Program-made: the position numbers and the translations under genes
The notes under the pieces: generated by a model
What the model was told of the DNA's origin: nothing
The model's input: the letters and a program-made list of their open reading frames with translations, nothing else
The model's database searches: none
Shown here: in pieces, positions 2,546 to 13,012 of the stretch
Layout: each line of letters starts with the position of its first letter
Numbering within the stretch: position 1 is the stretch's first letter
Assembly: GCA_027459825.1 (NCBI GenBank)
Contig: DAIDGT010000004.1
Coordinates: 1-62,128 of the forward strand
Reading direction: 5' to 3'
From: a bacterium
GTDB lineage: Bacteria > Patescibacteriota > Dojkabacteria > JAKAPS01 > JAJZLI01
Length of the DNA: 62,128 nucleotides

Positions 2546-4184
2546 TTAATTTATCTGGATTCAAAATCTTAGATATCCTATCTTTTCTTAACATATACTC
2601 AATGTTATTTCCATCCTTTAGTGTTTTAGGTGATATTACCACTCTATGAGGAATCCCAATAATATCAGCATCCGACAATTTTTCACCAGGAAAAACATCT
2701 AATCGGTCATCATATAATACATCCACACCAATATCTGTTAGTTTTTTATATAATTTATCAGCAGCTTCCTTCACCTTACTATCATTCATATTAATTCCAA
2801 CAAGATGAACCATAAAAGGTGCTACTGATTCTGGCCATACAATACCCTTATCATCATGATGTACCTCAACAATTGTAGCAAGTGTCCTTGCAATACCAAT
2901 GCCATAACACCCCATGTAATAAGGCTTAGTTTTCCCATCTTTGTCAGTAAAATGGGCACCAGACATTTTTGAAGAGTAATGAAATCCAAGTTGAAAAATA
3001 TGCCCCACCTCAACTCCTTTTTTTAATATCAGATCTTTACCATCTTCAGATAAACTACCTAAGGGAGCAAGGGCAATATCATCAATAATATTAAGTTGAA
3101 AATCTCTGGAGTAATTAATATTTAGGGCATATTTAGAAGTGTATTTACTATATGCATAACCATTAACAATTGTCTTTAATGAAATATCCCCTACAGTTTT
3201 CAAACCTTTTGTGTCAAATGGTGAAATCTTTCCTGAAAGAAAACCCATTTTTAATAAATCATCATTTAAAACTTTGGATATATCATATACTCCTAATACA
3301 TGAGCAAGTTTTATAGTATTAACCTCTATATCACCCCTTGTAAATACAACATAAAAATTATTATTTTCGTCTTTAAACAGGTCACCTCTTACAAATTTTG
3401 AAATAGGGTTATTGGTTGAATTTGAATATTCTAAAGGAAGAAACTCTTCTTTTAATATTTCTCCCCTAGAGAATTTTGCAATATCCTGATGAGCTAAATA
3501 TGTACCATCACTAGACTCTAAAAATTGGCTTTCACCAACATCAGATTCAACAATAAATTCATGACAGTAATCACCACCAATATATCCATTATCAGCACTT
3601 ACCATTTTAATATCAAGTCCAACTCTTTTAAATATATTCTTATATACATCCTGCATCTTCATATACTCATCTTTAAAGTCTTCCTGAGATATATTAAATG
3701 AGTAAGCATCCTTCATTACAAATTCCTTCATTCTTAAAAGTCCTCCCCGAGAACGCATTTCATCCCTGAATTTAGTAGAAAACTGATAAAGTCCAAAAGG
3801 CATATCTTTATATGAAACCTGGAATTTTCTTACAAGTTCAACAAGCATCTCTTCTGCAGTCCCTCCAAGTACAAATTCAGCATTATTACGATCACGAACC
3901 TTTAAAAGTTCAAAGCCAACAGACTCAGTTCTACCTGTTTCTTTCCATAAATCAACAGGATGGAAAATAGGGGTAACAATCTCCTGATATCCTGCAGCGT
4001 CCATCTCTTCCTTAATTATTTTTTGAATTTTTTGGTGAACCTTAAGCCCCAAAGGTAAAAAATAGTATCTTCCATTAGAACTATCCCTTATATACCCTGC
4101 CTTATATAAAAGTTTATGTGACACGGAAACAATATCATGAGGGACATCTTTGATTGTTTTTCCAAACAAAGTAGAATATTTCAT
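2523..4184 (-). CDS. proS: prolyl-tRNA synthetase
   Basis: 553 aa. Bacterial ProRS N-terminus MKYSTLFGKTIKDVP. Class II motif 2-like FRDEMRSRGGLLRMKEF and motif 3-like GCYGIGIARTLATIVE. Confidence 0.93.
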   Translation of the reverse strand: MKYSTLFGKTIKDVPHDIVSVSHKLLYKAGYIRDSSNGRYYFLPLGLKVHQKIQKIIKEEMDAAGYQEIVTPIFHPVDLWKETGRTESVGFELLKVRDRNNAEFVLGGTAEEMLVELVRKFQVSYKDMPFGLYQFSTKFRDEMRSRGGLLRMKEFVMKDAYSFNISQEDFKDEYMKMQDVYKNIFKRVGLDIKMVSADNGYIGGDYCHEFIVESDVGESQFLESSDGTYLAHQDIAKFSRGEILKEEFLPLEYSNSTNNPISKFVRGDLFKDENNNFYVVFTRGDIEVNTIKLAHVLGVYDISKVLNDDLLKMGFLSGKISPFDTKGLKTVGDISLKTIVNGYAYSKYTSKYALNINYSRDFQLNIIDDIALAPLGSLSEDGKDLILKKGVEVGHIFQLGFHYSSKMSGAHFTDKDGKTKPYYMGCYGIGIARTLATIVEVHHDDKGIVWPESVAPFMVHLVGINMNDSKVKEAADKLYKKLTDIGVDVLYDDRLDVFPGEKLSDADIIGIPHRVVISPKTLKDGNNIEYMLRKDRISKILNPDKLNEEFINQ

Positions 4185-5111: not shown

Positions 5112-5195
5112 AATTAAATTGGATTATACTATAAATAATAGATAAATAGGATAATAATATTAATCAAAAATAAGAATGGGGTGTATAATCGTGCA

Positions 5196-5879
5196 ATGAT
5201 AGAATCAGACTCTGGAAATACCCAAGAGATAAAAGAAAGCTTACAATTCAGTAAAAGCGTTATATTACCAAATGGGAATATAATATATTCATCATCTGAG
5301 ATAGGTAGATCACCACTAATTATGAGTAATAAAGGACAAATACTTGTCAAAAAAAATCCATGGTTATTACAACAGGTTGTAAATAATCCACAGGAAGATG
5401 AGGGAAATAAGGAATACAATCATAGGGGAAGTACTAGCCATGTATCAAAAACAGAAACCACAGACAATGAAGAGAGAGATAGTGTGGCAGTAAAGAAAAT
5501 ATTCGACCCAAATAAAGGCACTGGACTCGATCAATTTCGAGCACTACAGGAATTACAACAAACAGGGGTACCTGTAGCTACACCATTAATTGCAACTTCA
5601 TATTACCTAGTAACTAAATGGATTGAAGGAGATAGTGTATCATCCAGTTATAAACAAACAGGAGAACACGTTATTCCATACATAAGGAGATTAAATCAAA
5701 TAATCAATTCACTAAAAAGAAATGGTAATTGGAAATTAAGTTGGTATCTAGATACATGTATGGATAATTACATACCATACAATTTGTCTGCAGAAGACCC
5801 AATTCAAAGATTCATAGCACTAGACCCAATGATAAAAGATAGATTTGGACAACATATTATTCACTGGAAACAAGTTTAA
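5196..5879 (+). CDS. atypical protein-kinase-like protein (RIO / Kdo-kinase-like fold, tentative)
   Basis: The ORF track starts at GTG 5181. The in-frame ATG at 5196 lies 6 nt after TATAAT (5184-5189), so it is the likelier start. Kinase-like layout: beta3 Lys VAVKKI, alphaC ALQELQ, hinge LVTKWIEG, catalytic-loop-like YLDTCMDN, metal-binding-like ALDP. Confidence 0.45.
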   Translation: MIESDSGNTQEIKESLQFSKSVILPNGNIIYSSSEIGRSPLIMSNKGQILVKKNPWLLQQVVNNPQEDEGNKEYNHRGSTSHVSKTETTDNEERDSVAVKKIFDPNKGTGLDQFRALQELQQTGVPVATPLIATSYYLVTKWIEGDSVSSSYKQTGEHVIPYIRRLNQIINSLKRNGNWKLSWYLDTCMDNYIPYNLSAEDPIQRFIALDPMIKDRFGQHIIHWKQV

Positions 5880-5950: not shown

Positions 5951-7024
5951 ATGAACCTAGATCAAGTAAATGATTTAAAAAAGTTAGATCCATCAGATGT
6001 ATATAATTCAATATTAAATATTCCAAAACAAATCAAGCAAACATATGAAAATACAAAAAATTTATCATTCCCTAAAGGATATCAAGATATAGATGAAGTT
6101 CTTGTATGCGGAATGGGAGGGTCATCTCTGGGTGCCCATTTTGTTAGTACGCTACTAAGAGACTCAATAAAGATTCCATTTACAATAATAAACGGATATG
6201 AACTTCCAGGGTTTGTAAATAAAAACACACTAGTTATTTTATCTTCTAATTCAGGAACAACAGAAGAAGTAATTTCATGTTTAAACCTTGCAAAAGATAA
6301 AACTGATAAAATATATGCTATTACTACAGGAGGAAAGTTAAAAGAAGAGGTTGATAAAGGGGATATACAAGGATACATATTCTCACAAGAACTAAACATT
6401 GCAGGGCAACCAAGGTTGGCAGTATCATATACAATAATAAGTATTATGGCTGTACTAAAACATTTGGGGCTACTGGCTTATAAGGACTCGGATATTGAAG
6501 ATACTATTATGTATCTTGAGAATAAAAATACAGTATATGATATTAAGGTTGGTGCATCAGGAAATCTTGCAAAAGAGTATGCATATAAGATATATGAAAA
6601 ACTTCCAATAATTGTTGGAACAGAATTTACAGAAGGAGCTGCCCATACATTTGCAAACCAAATAAATGAGACATCTAAAAATCTTTCAATATATTTTGTA
6701 ATTCCTGAATTAAACCATCATTTACTTGAAGGACTAGTACATCCAACCATAGTACATTCTGACAGTATATTTATATTCATAAATTCAGAGTTTTACCATA
6801 AGAGAAACAAATCAAGAATAGATATTACTAAACAAATATTAAATGAAAAGAAAATAGAGTATATTGAAATAAATTTAAAAGCAAAAAACAAAATAGCTCA
6901 AGCATTCGAAATGCTTCAAATTGGATCATTTATAACTTTGTATCTTGCAATATTGTACAAACAGGATCCATGCCCAATAAAAACTGTAGATTATTTTAAA
7001 GAACAGTTATCAAAAGCAAAATAA
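5951..7024 (+). CDS. bifunctional phosphoglucose/phosphomannose isomerase-type SIS-domain protein
   Basis: SIS motif VCGMGGSSLGAHFV, a second SIS half, and the family-typical N-terminus MNLDQVNDLKKLDPSDV. The ORF track begins 27 nt upstream at 5924, which is the alternative start. Confidence 0.8.
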   Translation: MNLDQVNDLKKLDPSDVYNSILNIPKQIKQTYENTKNLSFPKGYQDIDEVLVCGMGGSSLGAHFVSTLLRDSIKIPFTIINGYELPGFVNKNTLVILSSNSGTTEEVISCLNLAKDKTDKIYAITTGGKLKEEVDKGDIQGYIFSQELNIAGQPRLAVSYTIISIMAVLKHLGLLAYKDSDIEDTIMYLENKNTVYDIKVGASGNLAKEYAYKIYEKLPIIVGTEFTEGAAHTFANQINETSKNLSIYFVIPELNHHLLEGLVHPTIVHSDSIFIFINSEFYHKRNKSRIDITKQILNEKKIEYIEINLKAKNKIAQAFEMLQIGSFITLYLAILYKQDPCPIKTVDYFKEQLSKAK

Positions 7025-7042
7025 ACAAACCTATACAGATAG

Positions 7043-7071
7043 TTGACAGGTTAATATATATTTTCTATAAT
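7043..7071 (+). promoter_or_regulatory. consensus sigma70-type promoter TTGACA-N17-TATAAT
   Basis: TTGACA at 7043-7048, a 17-nt spacer, then TATAAT at 7066-7071. It points into the 7105..7191 mini-ORF. Confidence 0.5.
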
Positions 7072-7104
7072 TTGCTTTAGTTCTTTAAAGAAAGGAGAAA
7101 AGAG

Positions 7105-7191
7105 ATGATATTCAGGTTGCTCCAGACATACCCTGGGATCATGCAATTCATGCCTCTGATCTACAAGATCATCTCGTTTCTATGTTCCTAG
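7105..7191 (+). CDS. 28-codon hydrophobic mini-ORF (MIFRLLQTYPGIMQFMPLIYKIISFLCS)
   Basis: AAAGGAG (7091-7097) lies 7 nt before the ATG at 7105. It sits downstream of the consensus promoter and upstream of copy 0 of the hairpin module. It is below the 60-aa cutoff of the ORF track. Confidence 0.3.
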   Translation: MIFRLLQTYPGIMQFMPLIYKIISFLCS

Positions 7192-7244
7192 TAAATACAG
7201 TCACAGAAGATTGTATTTACAACCCCAAACTCCTGGTGAGTGTA

Positions 7245-7347
7245 TGATCAAAAGATCAAAAAAAAGAGGGTACAAGAACTCAAGGGGCCAGAGAGACCAT
7301 CATTGTTTTGTGTATAAACACACAATCAACATCAAGTCACTCTGGCC
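7245..7347 (+). repeat. copy 0 of the two-hairpin 3' module (no T-tract)
   Basis: Small hairpin TGATC-AAAA-GATCA (7245-7258). Large hairpin GGGCCAGAG (7284-7292) paired with CTCTGGCCC (7339-7347), with inner hairpin TGTGT-ATAA-ACACA (7308-7321). Homologous to the modules at 8160-8285 and 11504-11629. Confidence 0.6.
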
Positions 7348-7381
7348 CATTCCATACCACCGCCAACACATACCTATAGTA

Positions 7382-7410
7382 TTTACAATATACATTAATT
7401 ATGATATAAT
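7382..7410 (+). promoter_or_regulatory. strong extended -10 promoter of GC-rich gene A
   Basis: TTTACA (7382-7387), N17, TG (7402-7403), then TATAAT (7405-7410). The segment atgatataattgtatttgttcttttc matches 25 of 26 nt with the copy at 10679-10704. Confidence 0.6.
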
Positions 7411-7431
7411 TGTATTTGTTCTTTTCCCAAC

Positions 7432-8151
7432 ATGTTCCGAATGTCCCAAGAAAGGGTGAGATCCGTGAAGAGGATCCTGGCTCTGGTTGCTATGTTCCTG
7501 ACTCTGTTTGGATTCAGTTCCATGGCTTCAGCCTCGGGCTCAGCTCGACAGTGGTTCTATGAGATCGGTCCCAATTTTCCATTCAAGGAGGTGGTTCCTT
7601 CCCAAGAGATCGAGACTGTCAGCATTCCGTTGACAACAGCCAACCAGTCGTGGGTAACCATCCCGTTCTCCTCCTATACAGGTGGAGCGATCCTAGTCGG
7701 TCAACCTTCCTCCTTTGGAGGAAAGAATGGAATGCAAATCGTGCATTCCTCGACAACAACGACCTACGTGTCGATCCATCTACAAATGGGACAATATGTA
7801 CCATTTACTGTCATTGGCCCGTCAACCTCCTCGCAAAAGGAGTACATTGGATTCATCGTCGGAGTCCCTCAAGGTTCCGTCATGACAAACAACAACGAAT
7901 TGATTTACTGGGGCAACTCAGTAAACCTGTTCCGTCCCGGATCTCAAGTTCTGTTCCTAACCCGAGATGCAGTCGGCTATGCTACCCAAGGATGGGTGAC
8001 AATATCGATTAATGGAGGAGCAACTGTATCCCGGATTCCTGCCAATGATGGCTGGATGGAATTTCAAGTTCCAAATCTGCCAGGGGCAACTCTGACGGTT
8101 CAATCCGGCAATCGGACAATAAATGGGGTGATCATTCCCGTCTCCTCTTAA
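7432..8151 (+). CDS. GC-rich secreted protein, paralogue A (Sec signal peptide, ASA|SG cleavage site)
   Basis: 239-aa ORF. By homology with paralogue B the start is probably GTG 7465 (VKRILALVAMFLTLFGFSSMASASG). About 50% G+C, Gly/Thr/Ser/Pro/Val-rich, no Cys. It carries the conserved block IPANDGWMEFQVPN at 8035-8076. Confidence 0.8.
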   Translation: MFRMSQERVRSVKRILALVAMFLTLFGFSSMASASGSARQWFYEIGPNFPFKEVVPSQEIETVSIPLTTANQSWVTIPFSSYTGGAILVGQPSSFGGKNGMQIVHSSTTTTYVSIHLQMGQYVPFTVIGPSTSSQKEYIGFIVGVPQGSVMTNNNELIYWGNSVNLFRPGSQVLFLTRDAVGYATQGWVTISINGGATVSRIPANDGWMEFQVPNLPGATLTVQSGNRTINGVIIPVSS

Positions 8152-8159
8152 TGAGGTAA

Positions 8160-8285
8160 TGACCAATAGGTCAAAAGAAAGAAAGGAGATGATCCAAAAA
8201 AAAGAACAATAAACAGGGTCAGAGAGACCAAATATTTTGTGTGCAAGCACAACCTATCTAAATCTCTCTGACCCATTTTCTTTTA
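8160..8285 (+). terminator. two-hairpin 3' module copy 1 (rho-independent terminator-like)
   Basis: TGACC-AATA-GGTCA (8160-8173). A 12-bp outer stem pairs GGGTCAGAGAGA (8216-8227) with TCTCTCTGACCC (8263-8274). The inner hairpin TTGTGT-GCAA-GCACAA (8237-8252) has a GNRA loop. A T-rich tail follows at 8276-8284. Confidence 0.7.
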
Positions 8286-8338: not shown

Positions 8339-10639
8339 ATGGTAATACTTTTTGCTTTCCTAATTATAATTTTTGTAATCTTTGTGATTGCTATTCTTTA
8401 TATAATAAAAGCAAAAGAAGTAACGAATGAGGAAATTACAGATAAAATCATTTTAAAGATAGCAGTTCCAAAAGAAAATGAAAAAACACCACTTAGCGCA
8501 GAACAAATGTTTGCTTCCTTACATGGGATTATAGAAGGTAAAAATAAAGCAAAAGATCCAATCAGTTTTGAAATAGCAGGAAATAGTGAAGGAATATCAT
8601 TTTATGTAGTAATTCCTAAGTACTTAAGAGATTTCGTAACTGGGCAAATATATGCTCAATATCCGCTTTCAGAAATATACCAATCTCAAGATTATTTTGA
8701 CGATGTATCTAAATATAATTCTGTGTATATTACAAATATAAAACTAGAAAAAAAATATAGTCTTCCTATAAAAACATTTGAAAATTTTGATGTTGATCCT
8801 CTTTCTGCACTAACTGCAACAATGACAAATATAAATGGAGAATGTGCTATACAATTTGTCATAAGACCCATAGGAAATACATGGCAGGATGGGAGCAAAA
8901 AATATATAGAAAAAATAAAAGGAAAAAATGGAAGTTTTTCAGAAATAATGAAAAGTCAAAATCCTGAAAAAACAAATAAAAAAGAAGAAACATCGTTTAC
9001 TAATGAAGAAAAAGTCACACAAATAGAAAATAAAATTTTAAAGGTTGGATATCAAATTGCAATAAGAGTCATGGCTGCTACAGAACAGGATAGCGAGTCA
9101 AGAAGGGTAGTAAATGATATCAAAGCATCATTTAAACAATTTTCAACGCCACACCTAAATTCTTTTATAGAAATCACAAATAATGATAAAAATGCACATG
9201 AAAGGAATTTCACATATTTTAAAAATAGATTTATCGGAAAGAATACAAAAGATATATTAAATATAGAAGAGCTTGCATCCTTATATCACCTTCCAAATTT
9301 ATCCGTAGAAACACCTTCAATTCATTGGTCAAAAGCAAAAAAAGCAGAATCTCCATTAAACCTTCCAACAGAAGATGTTACAGTAATAGGAATGACTAAC
9401 TTTAGGGAAACTAAAAAGAAATTTGGTATAAAGACAGATGATAGAAGAAGGCATATGTATATTCTAGGAAAAACTGGTACAGGAAAAAGTACAATGATGA
9501 AAAATATGATAATTTCGGATATCCTGAAAGGCAATGGAGTAGGTGTATTTGATCCTCATGGAGAACTCGCTGATGATATTCTAAACTTTATTCCAAACAA
9601 TAGAATTAATGATGTAGTAATAATAGACCCATCAGATACAGAACACCCAGTATCTATAAATTTATTAGACCTTAAAGACCAACACTTAAGAGATTTAGTT
9701 GCTGATAATATTCTTGCTGTATTTAAAAAACATTTTGATTCATGGGGGCCACGATTGGAATATTTATTACACAATTGTATATTAACTTTACTACAAGTAG
9801 ACAATACATCATTGTTAGGAATACAAAGGATACTTGTAGATAAAAATTATAGGCACAAAATAGTTTCTTATCTAAAAGACCCTATACTTATTAGATTCTG
9901 GAATGACGAATTTGAATCAATGGAGAAAAACAACAAATTATCATCTGAAGCAATTGCACCAATTCAAAATAAAGTAGGTAGATTTCTATCCTCTGCAACA
10001 ATAAGAAATATGGTAGGCCAAGTAACGTCAACAATTGATCTTGAAGAAATAATAAATGCAAAAAAAATATTAATTGTAAATCTTTCTCAAGGTAGAATAG
10101 GAGAGGAATCAACTGCACTACTTGGAGGTATGCTTATTACAAGACTCCAATCCGCAGCAATGCAAAGGGTTAAAATAAATGAAACAGAAAGACAAGATTT
10201 CTTCTTATATGTTGATGAATTCCAAACGTTCGCAACAAATGCATTCACAAAAATATTATCGGAAGCAAGAAAGTATAGGCTTGACTTAATACTAGCTCAT
10301 CAGTATATTGCGCAACTTGAAGAAGAAATACAAAATGCAATATTTGGAAATGTAGGGACATCTCTTAGTTTTGTTGTAGGACCACAAGATGCAGATCTAC
10401 TAGAAAAAGAATTTTCCCCTATATTCATTGCTCAAGACTTAATTTCTCTTGAAAGACACAACTTCTACATTAAATTGATGATAGATGGAATGATATCAAA
10501 ACCATTCAGTGGAACATCAATGGACTTACAGTACGAGAGAAACACTAATAAGGAAAAAGTTATAAGGGTAAGTCAGGAAAGATATGCAAGATCCAGATCA
10601 GAAGTAGAAGACAAAATTCAAAGGTGGAATACTAATTAA
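8339..10639 (+). CDS. membrane-anchored P-loop ATPase of the TraD/TraG/VirD4/TrwB coupling-protein type (FtsK/HerA superfamily)
   Basis: 766 aa from the ATG at 8339; the track start at 8237 lies inside the terminator hairpin. N-terminal TM helix VILFAFLIIIFVIFVIAILYII. Walker A ILGKTGTGKST (9467-9493), Walker B FFLYVDE (10199-10219), then ARKYRLDLILAHQYIAQL. The roughly 330-aa N-terminal domain has no motif I recognise. Confidence 0.75.
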   Translation: MVILFAFLIIIFVIFVIAILYIIKAKEVTNEEITDKIILKIAVPKENEKTPLSAEQMFASLHGIIEGKNKAKDPISFEIAGNSEGISFYVVIPKYLRDFVTGQIYAQYPLSEIYQSQDYFDDVSKYNSVYITNIKLEKKYSLPIKTFENFDVDPLSALTATMTNINGECAIQFVIRPIGNTWQDGSKKYIEKIKGKNGSFSEIMKSQNPEKTNKKEETSFTNEEKVTQIENKILKVGYQIAIRVMAATEQDSESRRVVNDIKASFKQFSTPHLNSFIEITNNDKNAHERNFTYFKNRFIGKNTKDILNIEELASLYHLPNLSVETPSIHWSKAKKAESPLNLPTEDVTVIGMTNFRETKKKFGIKTDDRRRHMYILGKTGTGKSTMMKNMIISDILKGNGVGVFDPHGELADDILNFIPNNRINDVVIIDPSDTEHPVSINLLDLKDQHLRDLVADNILAVFKKHFDSWGPRLEYLLHNCILTLLQVDNTSLLGIQRILVDKNYRHKIVSYLKDPILIRFWNDEFESMEKNNKLSSEAIAPIQNKVGRFLSSATIRNMVGQVTSTIDLEEIINAKKILIVNLSQGRIGEESTALLGGMLITRLQSAAMQRVKINETERQDFFLYVDEFQTFATNAFTKILSEARKYRLDLILAHQYIAQLEEEIQNAIFGNVGTSLSFVVGPQDADLLEKEFSPIFIAQDLISLERHNFYIKLMIDGMISKPFSGTSMDLQYERNTNKEKVIRVSQERYARSRSEVEDKIQRWNTN

Positions 10640-10660
10640 AAGACATATAACCCTATAGTA

Positions 10661-10689
10661 TTGAATAATAAAATAATTCATGATATAAT
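10661..10689 (+). promoter_or_regulatory. strong extended -10 promoter of GC-rich gene B
   Basis: TTGAAT (10661-10666), N17, TG (10681-10682), then TATAAT (10684-10689). It begins 22 nt after the ATPase stop codon. Confidence 0.6.
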
Positions 10690-10732
10690 TATATTTGTTC
10701 TTTTCAAAATGTCCCAGAAAGGATGAGCTTCG

Positions 10733-11503
10733 TTGAAGAAGATCCTGTCGATTGCAGCAGCAGCGATCCTGACCCTGACCATTGGTCTCGGAATCGGATC
10801 TACGGCTTCTGCATCTGGCCTCAATGTTGGAGCTCCCAACGAGTTCTACACGGTGGCCCCTGACACGATCTGGACTATGGTTGAGCCTACAGGCCCTGAC
10901 AGCATTCAAGGCATCAGCATCCCGATAACTCAAACAGGTCCCATGTCAATTGCGTTCGCAACGGATCCCGGCATGCTGGTTATTGTAGGCAACAACCCTA
11001 CAGCAACAGGTGCATCACAGATTCAAACCGTCAACGCAACAACCAATGTAACAACCGTTCCTGTATCTCTGGAAATGAATGTCCCTGTACCTTTTGAAGT
11101 TCTTGGAGGAACCAAGAGGGGGTCTGCCGTGGTTGTGTACCAAGGCTACCTAATGGGTACTCCACGAGGAGCAGAATGGTCAGGCACAGATGCTACCAGC
11201 AACAATGTTTATCTCTACTGGAATAATCCAGGAGAGATGAATGACTTCATGGCTGGAACCATAGCACAAGTTCCTGCAACATCTGCCATCGGCAACACCA
11301 CGGAAGGTTGGATTTCTACAACACAGGACAACCTCACAGTGGTTTCCAAGATACCTGCCAATGATGGCTGGATGGAGTTTCAAGTTCCAAACACAGTAGG
11401 GGCAACCCTAACTGCAGTATCTGGCAACCAGACAACCACGGGAACAGTAATCTCTCATCAAAACAACGAGACGTTTTCGCCTCCTCCCCTCATAATGAGG
11501 TAA
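10733..11503 (+). CDS. GC-rich secreted protein, paralogue B (Sec signal peptide, ASA|SG cleavage site)
   Basis: 256 aa with a TTG start (MKKILSIAAAAILTLTIGLGIGSTASASG). More than 50% G+C. It shares SIPxT, VPFxVxG, LYW and IPANDGWMEFQVPN (11351-11392) with paralogue A. Confidence 0.8.
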   Translation: MKKILSIAAAAILTLTIGLGIGSTASASGLNVGAPNEFYTVAPDTIWTMVEPTGPDSIQGISIPITQTGPMSIAFATDPGMLVIVGNNPTATGASQIQTVNATTNVTTVPVSLEMNVPVPFEVLGGTKRGSAVVVYQGYLMGTPRGAEWSGTDATSNNVYLYWNNPGEMNDFMAGTIAQVPATSAIGNTTEGWISTTQDNLTVVSKIPANDGWMEFQVPNTVGATLTAVSGNQTTTGTVISHQNNETFSPPPLIMR

Positions 11504-11629
11504 TGACCTAACGGTCAAATAAAAAGGATGTGTGTCATGAAAAGAAATGTTTAAGGGTCAGAGAGACCAAAATTATTTTGTGCGCAAGCACACTTTAATT
11601 CAAATCTCTCTGACCCATTTCCTTTTTTT
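11504..11629 (+). terminator. two-hairpin 3' module copy 2 (rho-independent terminator-like)
   Basis: TGACC-TAAC-GGTCA (11504-11517). The outer stem pairs 11555-11566 with 11605-11616 and is identical to copy 1. Inner hairpin TGTGC-GCAA-GCACA (11579-11592). T-tract CCTTTTTTT at 11621-11629. Confidence 0.7.
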
Positions 11630-11650
11630 ATATACAATACCTATTTTTGC

Positions 11651-13012
11651 TTAAAATTCTTCGTTTGTTATAACAGACTCTACCTCTTTTAGCTGTTTAT
11701 CAAGTATTTCTTGACTCTTAGCCTCAGCATTAAGTCTTATAAGGGGTTCAGTATTTGATCCTCTCAAATTAAACCTCCAATCTGAAAAATCTACAGAAAG
11801 ACCATCTATATGATATATTCTTGAAGCCTTATCCTTATAATGTTCTTCAACATGCTCAAGTATCTTTGAAACATCACTAACCTTATAATTAATTTCAGGA
11901 GATGCAAAATACTTAGTCCTATAATAAGATAATAATTGAGAAAGAGGTTTCTTTTCATTAATAATATGCTCTAACATCATAAGCATAGGAATCATACCAT
12001 TATCAGCATAATAATTTTCCCTAAAATAAAAATGAGAAGATAATTCTCCTGCAAAAATAGCATTTTCCTGTCTCATTCTCTCTTTTATAAAAGCATGTCC
12101 TGCTTTTGAGATTATAGATACACCTCCCATTGAATTTATGGTGTCCTCAATAGCCCAGATTTGCCTTGGATCATGTATAATTTTTTCCCCGGGATGATTT
12201 TTTAAAATATTTTTAGCAAGCATTGCTGTAATAAAATACCCTGTTGAATATCCACCCTTCTCATCAATAAAGAAACACCTATCAGCATCTCCGTCATATG
12301 CAACACCAAGATCAGCATGTCTTTCAACTACTAACTTTTCTAAATCTTTTACATTTTCTTCATCAAGAGGTTCAGCTTGGTGATTTGGAAAATTACCATC
12401 AGGTTCAAAATATAAAGGAATAAGTTCACACCCTAGATGAGAAAAGACATCAGGTAAAATTGTTCCAGCGATACCATTCCCCGCATCAATTACAACCTTC
12501 AAACCTTTTAACTTATCTTTATCAACAAAACTTAAAACATGATTAATGTAATCATCTTTAATGTCTAATTTTTCAATACCATCTATAGAGGAAGGATAAT
12601 CAAATTTTTCATTCGAACTACCTAATACCAAATCTCTAATGGCATAAATACCACTATCTCCACTCAAAGGTTTTGCATCTCTCAAAACTAGCTTTACTCC
12701 GTTATACTCTTTTGGATTGTGCGATGCAGTAATCTGTACACCTCCATCAAATCCATATTTTGCAGTAGCAAAATACACCATATCTGTTGCAATAACTCCA
12801 AGATCTGTAACTTTAGCTCCAGCAAGAAGAGCACCTTTTACAAAATGCTCAAATAAAATTGGGGATGAAACACGAATATCTCTTCCTACGCAAATATTCA
12901 TAACCTTGGTAAATTTCACATAAAAATACCCTATTTTTGCAACAGTATCCTCATCAATTTGTGTTGGGTAAATACCCCTTATATCATAAGCTTTAAAAAT
13001 TGCAGGATCCAT
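11651..13012 (-). CDS. phosphomannomutase/phosphoglucomutase
   Basis: 453 aa. Active-site Ser loop TASHNPKEYNG and Mg-binding loop AYDGDADRCF. The overall layout matches the alpha-D-phosphohexomutase family. Confidence 0.88.
   Translation of the reverse strand: MDPAIFKAYDIRGIYPTQIDEDTVAKIGYFYVKFTKVMNICVGRDIRVSSPILFEHFVKGALLAGAKVTDLGVIATDMVYFATAKYGFDGGVQITASHNPKEYNGVKLVLRDAKPLSGDSGIYAIRDLVLGSSNEKFDYPSSIDGIEKLDIKDDYINHVLSFVDKDKLKGLKVVIDAGNGIAGTILPDVFSHLGCELIPLYFEPDGNFPNHQAEPLDEENVKDLEKLVVERHADLGVAYDGDADRCFFIDEKGGYSTGYFITAMLAKNILKNHPGEKIIHDPRQIWAIEDTINSMGGVSIISKAGHAFIKERMRQENAIFAGELSSHFYFRENYYADNGMIPMLMMLEHIINEKKPLSQLLSYYRTKYFASPEINYKVSDVSKILEHVEEHYKDKASRIYHIDGLSVDFSDWRFNLRGSNTEPLIRLNAEAKSQEILDKQLKEVESVITNEEF

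Follow-up and report, generated by a model that had tools for sequence, protein, structure and literature searches.

Hairpin modules at the 3′ ends of duplicated secreted-protein cassettes in a Dojkabacteria genome: candidate bidirectional terminators that may also stabilise mRNA

We analysed a 62,128-nt stretch of a Dojkabacteria genome (positions 1 to 62,128 of contig DAIDGT010000004.1, assembly GCA_027459825.1; hereafter the window) that carries three copies of a 3′ RNA module composed of several hairpins. A single cassette was duplicated, and the three copies are its paralogous ends and not independent instances of the module, since each of them ends a unit of promoter and open reading frame (ORF) in which the promoters and the ends of the coding sequences are repeated as well. 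We put at roughly 0.55 the probability that these modules, as the conserved 3′ ends of three cassette copies, act as a strong intrinsic terminator in both directions and, in addition, protect the mRNA at its 3′ end. The original prediction had named an intrinsic terminator as the simplest reading of copies 1 and 2, and this reading is the best supported one.

In each copy, a small hairpin (hp1) is followed by a spacer and a larger hairpin (hp2), all on the forward strand. Sequence, fold and RNAalifold supported hp1 throughout: it reads TGATC-AAAA-GATCA in copy 0 (7245–7258), TGACC-AATA-GGTCA in copy 1 (8160–8173) and TGACC-TAAC-GGTCA in copy 2 (11504–11517). Hp2, supported by its fold, occupies 7285–7348, 8216–8274 and 11555–11616, respectively. 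Its outer stem pairs GGGCCAGAG with CTCTGGCCC in copy 0 and GGGTCAGAGAGA with TCTCTCTGACCC (12 bp) in copy 1, whose hp2 also has internal loops and, further inside, a hairpin with the loop GCAA; the 12-bp outer stem of copy 2 is identical to that of copy 1. The inner hairpins are TGTGT-ATAA-ACACA in copy 0, TTGTGT-GCAA-GCACAA in copy 1 and TGTGC-GCAA-GCACA in copy 2. Hp2 is followed by a T-tract in copy 1 (TTTTCTTTTA, 8276–8285) and copy 2 (TTTCCTTTTTTTA, 11618–11630) and lacks one in copy 0, which confirms the three copies as they had first been described, with T-tracts after copies 1 and 2 only. The spacer is A-rich in copy 0 (7259–7284) and in copy 1 (8174–8215), where 17 of the 25 nt 5′ of hp2 are A. 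The copy 1 spacer includes the Shine-Dalgarno (SD)-like motif AAGAAAGGAGATGATCC, and motif comparison placed the SD-like motif AAAGGATG in the copy 2 spacer (11518–11554).

Folding each copy bore out the proposed structure. Against dinucleotide shuffles, the three copies had z-scores of −5.76, −6.22 and −7.66, and none of 200 shuffles was equally stable. A scan of every 80-nt segment on both strands (mean −9.2 kcal/mol, standard deviation 4.4) ranked the three hp2 regions as the top three local folds of the 62 kb, at −32.5 to −36.5 kcal/mol, with the copy 2 hairpin the most stable of all. The paralogous modules share 60–77% identity. The forward strand of the window contains exactly three copies of the 15-mer GGGYCAGAGAGACCA; with up to three mismatches, the 15-mer had six matches where 0.8 were expected, a number reached in none of 100 shuffles.

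Copies 1 and 2 follow two genes encoding signal-peptide proteins. Gene 1 (7432–8151, forward strand) encodes 239 residues from an ATG at 7432 or 228 residues from a GTG at 7465, and gene 2 (10733–11503, forward strand) encodes 256 residues from a TTG start. Their promoters and leader starts (7373–7426 and 10652–10705) form a forward-strand repeat, labelled D4, that is 80% identical; the promoter is TTTACA-17-TGaTATAAT for gene 1 (11/12 consensus positions) and TTGAAT-17-TGaTATAAT for gene 2 (10/12), both with an extended −10 element. At the other end of the genes, the similarity of the modules continues upstream into the coding sequence, where a repeat of 94 nt is 78% identical (8026–8119 versus 11342–11435), and the proteins, which are 40% identical overall, have the same C-terminal stretch IPANDGWMEFQVPN. 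Copy 0 closes a mini-cassette, TU0, that sits between the PGI gene and gene 1 (7025–7372). The TU0 promoter (TTGACA-17-TATAAT, 7043–7071, forward strand) matches the consensus at 12 of 12 positions and has the CCTATA motif typical of the cassettes before it, and the 5′ end of its promoter region aligns with the promoter regions of genes 1 and 2. Downstream lie a GGAG ribosome-binding site (RBS) and a hydrophobic 28-codon ORF (MIFRLLQTYPGIMQFMPLIYKIISFLCS, 7106–7192, forward strand), and the unit ends with the full 3′ module without a T-tract. We rejected TU0 as a decayed gene 2 paralog, as similarity in its interior was unsupported by BLASTP and it is cassette-like at its two ends only; it could be a remnant, or a gene for a small peptide or an RNA.

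Syntenic loci were located by using as anchor the ATPase gene that lies between the two cassettes (8390–10639, forward strand). Locus L005, from the metagenome-assembled genome (MAG) MAS3.bin101, has ~87% nucleotide identity to the window across the region and contains both cassettes (genes at 3027–3740 and 6347–7105). L012, a 58-kb Logan contig, contains gene 1 only (6001–6705). At 9186–9332 of this contig, gene 2 has been lost in a deletion that starts upstream of its promoter and ends halfway through the spacer, and an intact hp2 remains directly after the ATPase stop codon, between the convergent genes for the ATPase and for phosphomannomutase/phosphoglucomutase (PMM). TU0 is present in neither locus. 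Together, the related metagenome loci contribute two further module versions. One of these is the gene 1 module of L005 and L012, which is 60–71% identical to the window copies and keeps every helix.

A third hairpin of 4 bp (hp0) lies over the final codons and the stop codon and was recovered by RNAalifold from seven sequences. Sequence and RNAalifold supported it in all three window copies, with additional support from the pair count in copy 0. It reads ACTC-CTGGT-GAGT in copy 0 (7229–7241), CCTC-TTAAT-GAGG in copy 1 (8144–8156) and CCTC-ATAAT-GAGG in copy 2 (11488–11500), and its stem is CTTG/CAAG in the L005/L012 gene 1 module. The copy 1 loop holds the stop codon TAA (8149–8151), while copy 2 hp0 codes for the last residues and is directly followed by TAA at 11501–11503. 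Tandem in-frame stops, TAA TGA, close both genes (8149–8154 and 11501–11506); in copy 2, the second of them is formed by the first three bases of hp1. The C-terminal tail of the proteins (PPPLIMR / APPLLVIK) is shortened by an earlier stop in gene 1 of the window and of L005, as seen in a comparison of L005 3738–3740 with L012 6676–6705, and the hp0 nucleotides are kept. The persistence of the hp0 and hp1 nucleotides where the reading frame ends earlier argues for a constraint at the RNA rather than the protein level.

Changes among the module versions tend to preserve base pairing. The hp1 stem of the L005/L012 gene 1 module is TGACC/GGTCA, as in copies 1 and 2. In the L005 gene 1 module, the outer stem of hp2, GGTCAGAGGAT/ATCCTCTGACC, has its three top pairs exchanged (GAT/ATC versus AGA/TCT), and the inner stem is TTTTATGC/GCATAAAA versus TTGTGT/GCACAA. 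The L005 ortholog of copy 2 has an A:U pair changed to G.U at position 8 of the outer stem and a GUAA instead of a GCAA loop. A strain variant, 8242 T>C, converts the U.G pair of the copy 1 inner stem to C:G, and the other population changes in public DNA runs fall in loops or flanks. In a pair count over eight sequences, including versions from L005, L012 and a further locus, L003, standard pairs filled 98.5% of the pair cells, some of them forced hp0 and hp1 cells added by the partial L012 copy, versus 28–48% when the partners were slid. We counted eight two-sided pair changes, a number matched in none of 500 shuffles. RNAalifold recovered not only hp0 but also hp1 and the outer and inner stems of hp2, with seven compensated pairs. 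The compensatory changes first noticed in the three window copies held up when versions from related loci were added. These covariation statistics are suggestive of purifying selection on RNA pairing, which may have kept the stems. The stems are clearly better preserved than the spacer, which is the least conserved part of the module and has diverged far more than they have.

Hp2 and its flanks have a terminator-like anatomy. On the forward strand, hp2 folds at −27 to −31 kcal/mol. It starts 65 nt after the gene 1 stop and 52 nt after the gene 2 stop; in copy 0, it starts 39 nt after the frame that ends at TGA 7244–7246, just before hp1. T accounts for 9 of the first 12 bases after hp2 in copies 1 and 2 and in the L005 ortholog of copy 2, which, like intrinsic terminators, have a stable G+C-containing hairpin directly before a T-tract. 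In this respect, the anatomy fits the terminator originally suspected in copies 1 and 2. Unlike intrinsic terminators, hp2 is bipartite and unusually long (57–64 nt): it contains internal loops, and its inner hairpin carries a tetraloop; moreover, two module versions lack the T-tract, and two extra conserved hairpins are found at the stop codon.

The 25 bases before hp2 contain 10–17 A, which yields a U-rich tail on the reverse strand. There, hp2 folds at −25.5 to −35.3 kcal/mol, equally well or better than on the forward strand (copy 0: −27.7 forward, −31.7 reverse). Upstream A-tracts are a recognised mark of bidirectional terminators, and the module resembles these in its A-rich tract, in its reverse-strand hairpin with U-rich tail and in the location of copy 2 between convergent genes (PMC12207403). 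These are gene 2 and the PMM gene (11651–13012, reverse strand). The hp2 relic in L012 also has a convergent setting, between the ATPase and PMM genes, while copies 0 and 1 precede genes in the same direction. Elsewhere in the window, between 32001 and 52000, we found eight canonical sites of a hairpin followed by a T-tract. As 5.2 ± 2.1 were expected from shuffles, such sites are not enriched, and the genome seems to use few classical intrinsic terminators. The cassette promoters rank among the best consensus matches found. With near-consensus promoters on the cassettes and unenriched terminators elsewhere, strong units would therefore carry their own strong stop signals.

In the reading that we propose, a cassette has a strong sigma-70-type promoter, then a leader and a gene whose secreted, probably all-beta product has a fast-evolving core; at its 3′ end come, in this order, hp0, the stop codon, hp1, the A-rich spacer and hp2. 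Hp2 would bring about factor-independent termination in both directions and would shield each strongly promoted cassette from its neighbour, which is the downstream ATPase gene at copy 1 and the convergent PMM gene at copy 2. The hairpin left at the 3′ end of the transcript, backed by hp1 and hp0, would block 3′-to-5′ exonucleases and stabilise the mRNA; hp0 and hp1, we infer, may hold up exonucleases a second time where the coding sequence ends. Such stabilisation would explain why the stems are kept without a T-tract in copy 0 and in the L005/L012 gene 1 module. The likeness of the copies would go back to duplication of the cassette, followed by retention or homogenisation of its ends. Termination, its bidirectionality, the stabilisation and any role of hp0 and hp1 are predicted here from sequence features.

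Several observations weigh against this explanation. All stems are kept without a good forward-strand T-tract in copy 0 and in the gene 1 module of L005 and L012, which make up two of the five distinct versions: only 3 of the 12 bases after hp2 are T in copy 0, and 6 of 12 after both the L005 gene 1 hp2 and the L012 relic. Stems kept in this way agree with stabilisation, or with some other role, no less than with termination. A terminator does not require hp0 and hp1, yet they are conserved. The conserved ends of the cassettes could partly reflect gene conversion instead of selection. The pair count of 98.5% comes from effectively four to five independent versions and from an alignment that was fitted to the model and favours pairing, which places it below R-scape grade. 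Finally, the only metatranscriptome runs linked to these organisms, three from the same study (X18–X20), contain no contig of either the window locus or L005.

Among the alternatives, the one that survives best, which we nevertheless consider unlikely, is that the module, as a 'positive retroregulator', chiefly serves to stabilise the mRNA at its 3′ end, with hp2, hp1 and hp0 as successive barriers to 3′-to-5′ exonucleases or as a processing site. It would then have been selected for a higher yield of an abundant secreted protein, and termination would be secondary or absent. It would accommodate both the versions that retain every stem without a T-tract and the small conserved hairpins at the stop codon, which are superfluous for a terminator. 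A precedent is the 3′ stem-loop of the Bacillus thuringiensis crystal-protein (cry) genes, which stabilises mRNA and was described as a 'positive retroregulator' (Wong & Chang 1986, cited in PMC13001229). The two are alike in that a large 3′ hairpin, which could block 3′ exonucleases, follows a strongly promoted gene whose exported or accumulated product is abundant (PMC13001229). They differ in that their sequences are unrelated, the phylum is another one and stabilisation by our module is a sequence-based prediction. Two features are less easily reconciled with a pure stabiliser: T-tracts and A-tracts stand at exactly the positions expected of a terminator in three of the five versions, and L012 has kept hp2 after losing the gene whose mRNA was to be stabilised. 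Stabilisation as such is compatible with the terminator explanation.

The module might also go beyond termination and stabilisation and be devoted to the post-transcriptional control of hypervariable surface-protein cassettes, coupling the 3′ end to translation or to allele switching, which we regard as rather doubtful. The stop-codon hairpins and the spacer, acting as a mimic of the gene's own RBS, would then be bound by ribosomes, by a protein or by the 5′ leader, or would leave the transcript as a small RNA (sRNA). The 3′ spacers contain SD-like motifs (AAAGGATG and AAGGAG) that resemble the RBS and start regions of the cassette genes themselves, as found by comparing 8174–8215 and 11518–11554 with 7440–7467 and 10712–10735 and with their L005 equivalents. 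In the spacer of L005 gene 2, GAAAGGATGAGTGTC matches GAAAGGATGAGTTTC at 14 of 15 positions, and against shuffles the pairs of spacer and own RBS had p-values from <0.002 (no shuffle was as good) to 0.056. Such a motif may be a relic of the start of a former downstream gene, or a functional mimic. The gene 2 leader UUCUUUUCA (10697–10708) is complementary to the 3′ spacer of the same gene, UGAAAAGAA (11541–11549), forming a 9-bp helix. The corresponding L005 pair, UUCUUUGCA/UGCAAAGGA (6301–6320 with 7142–7152), shows one compensated change and one U.G pair. The energies of these leader-spacer duplexes are not clearly beyond what composition gives (p = 0.03–0.3 versus shuffles), and pairs across cassettes score like own pairs. 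A mini-ORF of five codons follows the SD-like motif in the spacers of copy 2 (MKRNV*) and its L005 ortholog (MQRKV*); we rejected it as a conserved feature because an equivalent is missing in copy 1, copy 0 and the L005 gene 1 module.

A further possibility, improbable in our judgement, is that the cassette ends act at the DNA level, as homology arms for the exchange or gene conversion of surface-protein alleles, with hairpins that are incidental or serve recombination. In the cassette proteins, the signal peptide and the C-terminal 30 residues are conserved (ends 50–73% identical) around a hypervariable core (30–41%), which is the pattern of a putative surface protein under diversifying selection or allele exchange. 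The gene 1 position holds two unrelated allele types, one in the window and one in L005 and L012, in genomes that are ~87% identical overall. Moreover, window gene 1 has a gene 2-like promoter, C-terminus and 3′ module, and close relatives differ by gain and loss of cassettes. While all of this would suit exchange between cassettes, the compensatory double changes and the G.U pairs in the copy 1 inner stem and at outer-stem position 8 of the L005 gene 2 module point to selection that acts on pairing and not solely on identity of sequence. In addition, a domain scan of 28 window ORFs revealed neither a recombinase nor a reverse transcriptase, and the breakpoints of the L012 deletion are not at the hairpins.

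Still less probable, and very doubtful to us, is a regulatory RNA, which would be either a stable sRNA released from the 3′ untranslated region (UTR) or a cis element that binds a protein or the ribosome through the SD-like RBS mimic. sRNAs derived from 3′ UTRs include the CpxQ and SroC types of enterobacteria. The module is similar to them in size and in layout, in which the mRNA ends with a 5′ hairpin, then purine-rich single-stranded sequence and last a terminator hairpin; the likeness of the spacer motifs to the genes' own RBS and the compensated leader-spacer helix would also speak for regulation. Unlike in those sRNAs, the single-stranded part of the module is poorly conserved, and we know of no sRNA chaperone context in the lineage of the window organism. 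The module is not preceded by an internal promoter. The composition-like duplex energies, the equally good cross-cassette pairs and the unconserved mini-ORF also argue against this possibility. That the modules have no function beyond ancestry, being leftovers of a duplicated terminator in which compensation arose by chance among few paralogs, is highly improbable: although there are just four to five independent versions and every copy is a paralog or ortholog of one cassette, 98.5% of pair cells are paired at 60–77% identity (28–48% in the slid controls), eight pairs are compensated and broken pairs are almost absent, and the unpaired spacer has diverged far beyond the stems.

The module has a restricted distribution. 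A covariance model built from the copies, intended to reveal more of them, found none outside the cassette family, with no further instance in the 62-kb window (next best E > 1) or in 12 related loci; the orthologous copies did supply covariation. Among 185,579 GTDB species genomes, the pattern of hp1 and hp2 was found only in the two copies of L005. In metagenome contigs from JGI, the sole pattern match was a chance match inside a coding sequence, and viral contigs contained no module match. Since all copies in the window, the 12 loci and the GTDB pattern scan are linked to cassettes, we rejected a dispersed repeat or mobile element. In repetitive extragenic palindromes (REP), palindromic hairpins recur in 3′ UTRs, where they can influence termination as well as decay (bioRxiv 10.64898/2026.03.23.713779). 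The module is likewise a repeated palindromic hairpin element of 3′ UTRs, but whereas REP elements are dispersed in many copies after unrelated genes, it follows one gene family only, with three copies in 62 kb and two in the related MAG.

A known RNA family, which could have accounted for the hairpins, was not found: Rfam 15 gave no match at gathering thresholds. The best sub-threshold match was to Clostridiales-1 (RF01699), whose first long hairpin, including the GCUUGC loop, aligns with copy 2 hp2 on the reverse strand. At 22.6–29.9 bits versus a gathering score of 48, and with 86 of the 166 model positions missing, the module is not a member of that family. The matches obtained in E-value mode (Clostridiales-1, VrrA and miRNA precursors) were rejected as generic hairpin look-alikes far under threshold. 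Two further candidates were discarded. A diversity-generating retroelement does not agree with the coding repeat of genes 1 and 2, which differs at all base types and not only at A, and the scanned ORFs include no reverse transcriptase. An integron attC site was rejected as GTTRRRY is missing from the 3′ arm of hp2, whose final CTCTGACCC precedes A or G and T-rich sequence; each cassette also has its own promoter, and no recombinase domain was detected in the 28 window ORFs scanned. The module is probably a new, lineage-restricted intrinsic terminator, likely bidirectional, and 3′ stabiliser.

If this is true, the locus would provide a natural, self-contained expression cassette, in which a hypervariable secreted protein is encoded between a consensus promoter with its leader on one side and a strong two-way terminator or stabiliser on the other. 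It would inform how expression is insulated in uncultured small-genome bacteria with few canonical terminators, and it might be of use as a genetic part. The general significance is modest, because the covariation concerns a very small, lineage-restricted family. The surrounding biology may outrank the hairpins: the cassettes, with a G+C content at third codon positions (GC3) of ~0.5 in a genome of ~0.18, evolve fast, are gained and lost between relatives and flank a TraD/VirD4-like ATPase. These compositionally aberrant, hypervariable cassettes are the more unusual feature of the locus.

The window is an AT-rich chromosomal segment (30% GC) with housekeeping genes, including those for PGI, PMM, ArgRS, ATP synthase and RNR as well as cell-wall and glycosyltransferase genes. 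Among its ORFs, genes 1 and 2 alone have a GC content of ~0.50 and a GC3 of ~0.5 (0.47–0.53; 0.52 for gene 1 and 0.47–0.48 for gene 2). The remaining ORFs have a GC3 of 0.13–0.23, except for one at 0.28 and short antisense ORFs that overlap genes. The high GC content of the cassette genes is maintained in L005 and L012, and it could result from foreign origin, from biased gene conversion between the paralogs or from selection.

The cassette proteins matched nothing in Pfam or NCBIfam. An AlphaFold model was weak (pLDDT 59.8) and consists of a low-confidence pair of beta-sandwich domains, which matched only generic tandem Ig/FN3-like beta-sandwiches with TM scores of 0.2–0.26. The protein family comprises three clusters among 5.8 billion clustered proteins, and an exhaustive HMMER search of 1.84 billion representatives added one type (P0004/P0005); the distant matches P0006 and P0007 are repeat or low-complexity proteins and uninformative. 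The organisms were found in metagenomes from mine drainage, tailings, sediment and wastewater, and in one DNA run the L012-type locus assembles at a word depth of ~108×. In the gene 2 leader, a short upstream ORF (uORF; ATG TCC CAG AAA GGA TGA, encoding MSQKG*; 10709–10726, and ~6320–6342 in L005) overlaps the Shine-Dalgarno sequence that lies just 5′ of the TTG start codon. The ATG of this uORF is in frame with the gene in the gene 1 types.

The ATPase encoded between the two cassettes is of the TraD/VirD4-like coupling type and has DUF87, TrwB_AAD_bind and TraG-D_C domains. In five distant loci (L006–L010; Patescibacteria, Saccharibacteria or unclassified), where the ATPase is 45–64% identical, no GC-rich island was found around its gene, and the two of these that were inspected (L006 and L008) contained no cassette. 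In these distant Patescibacteria and Saccharibacteria MAGs, the ATPase gene is conserved but stands alone, and other conjugation genes were not seen nearby. Secreted-protein cassettes flank the ATPase only in the clade of the window, and the L012 ATPase has an N-terminal DUF8128. Another difference between the relatives concerns an ORF of 232 residues (5181–5879, GTG start, no Pfam match) that is present in the window and absent from the otherwise collinear L005 and L012. The indel that contains this ORF adjoins a gene for an M78 peptidase (IrrE-like).

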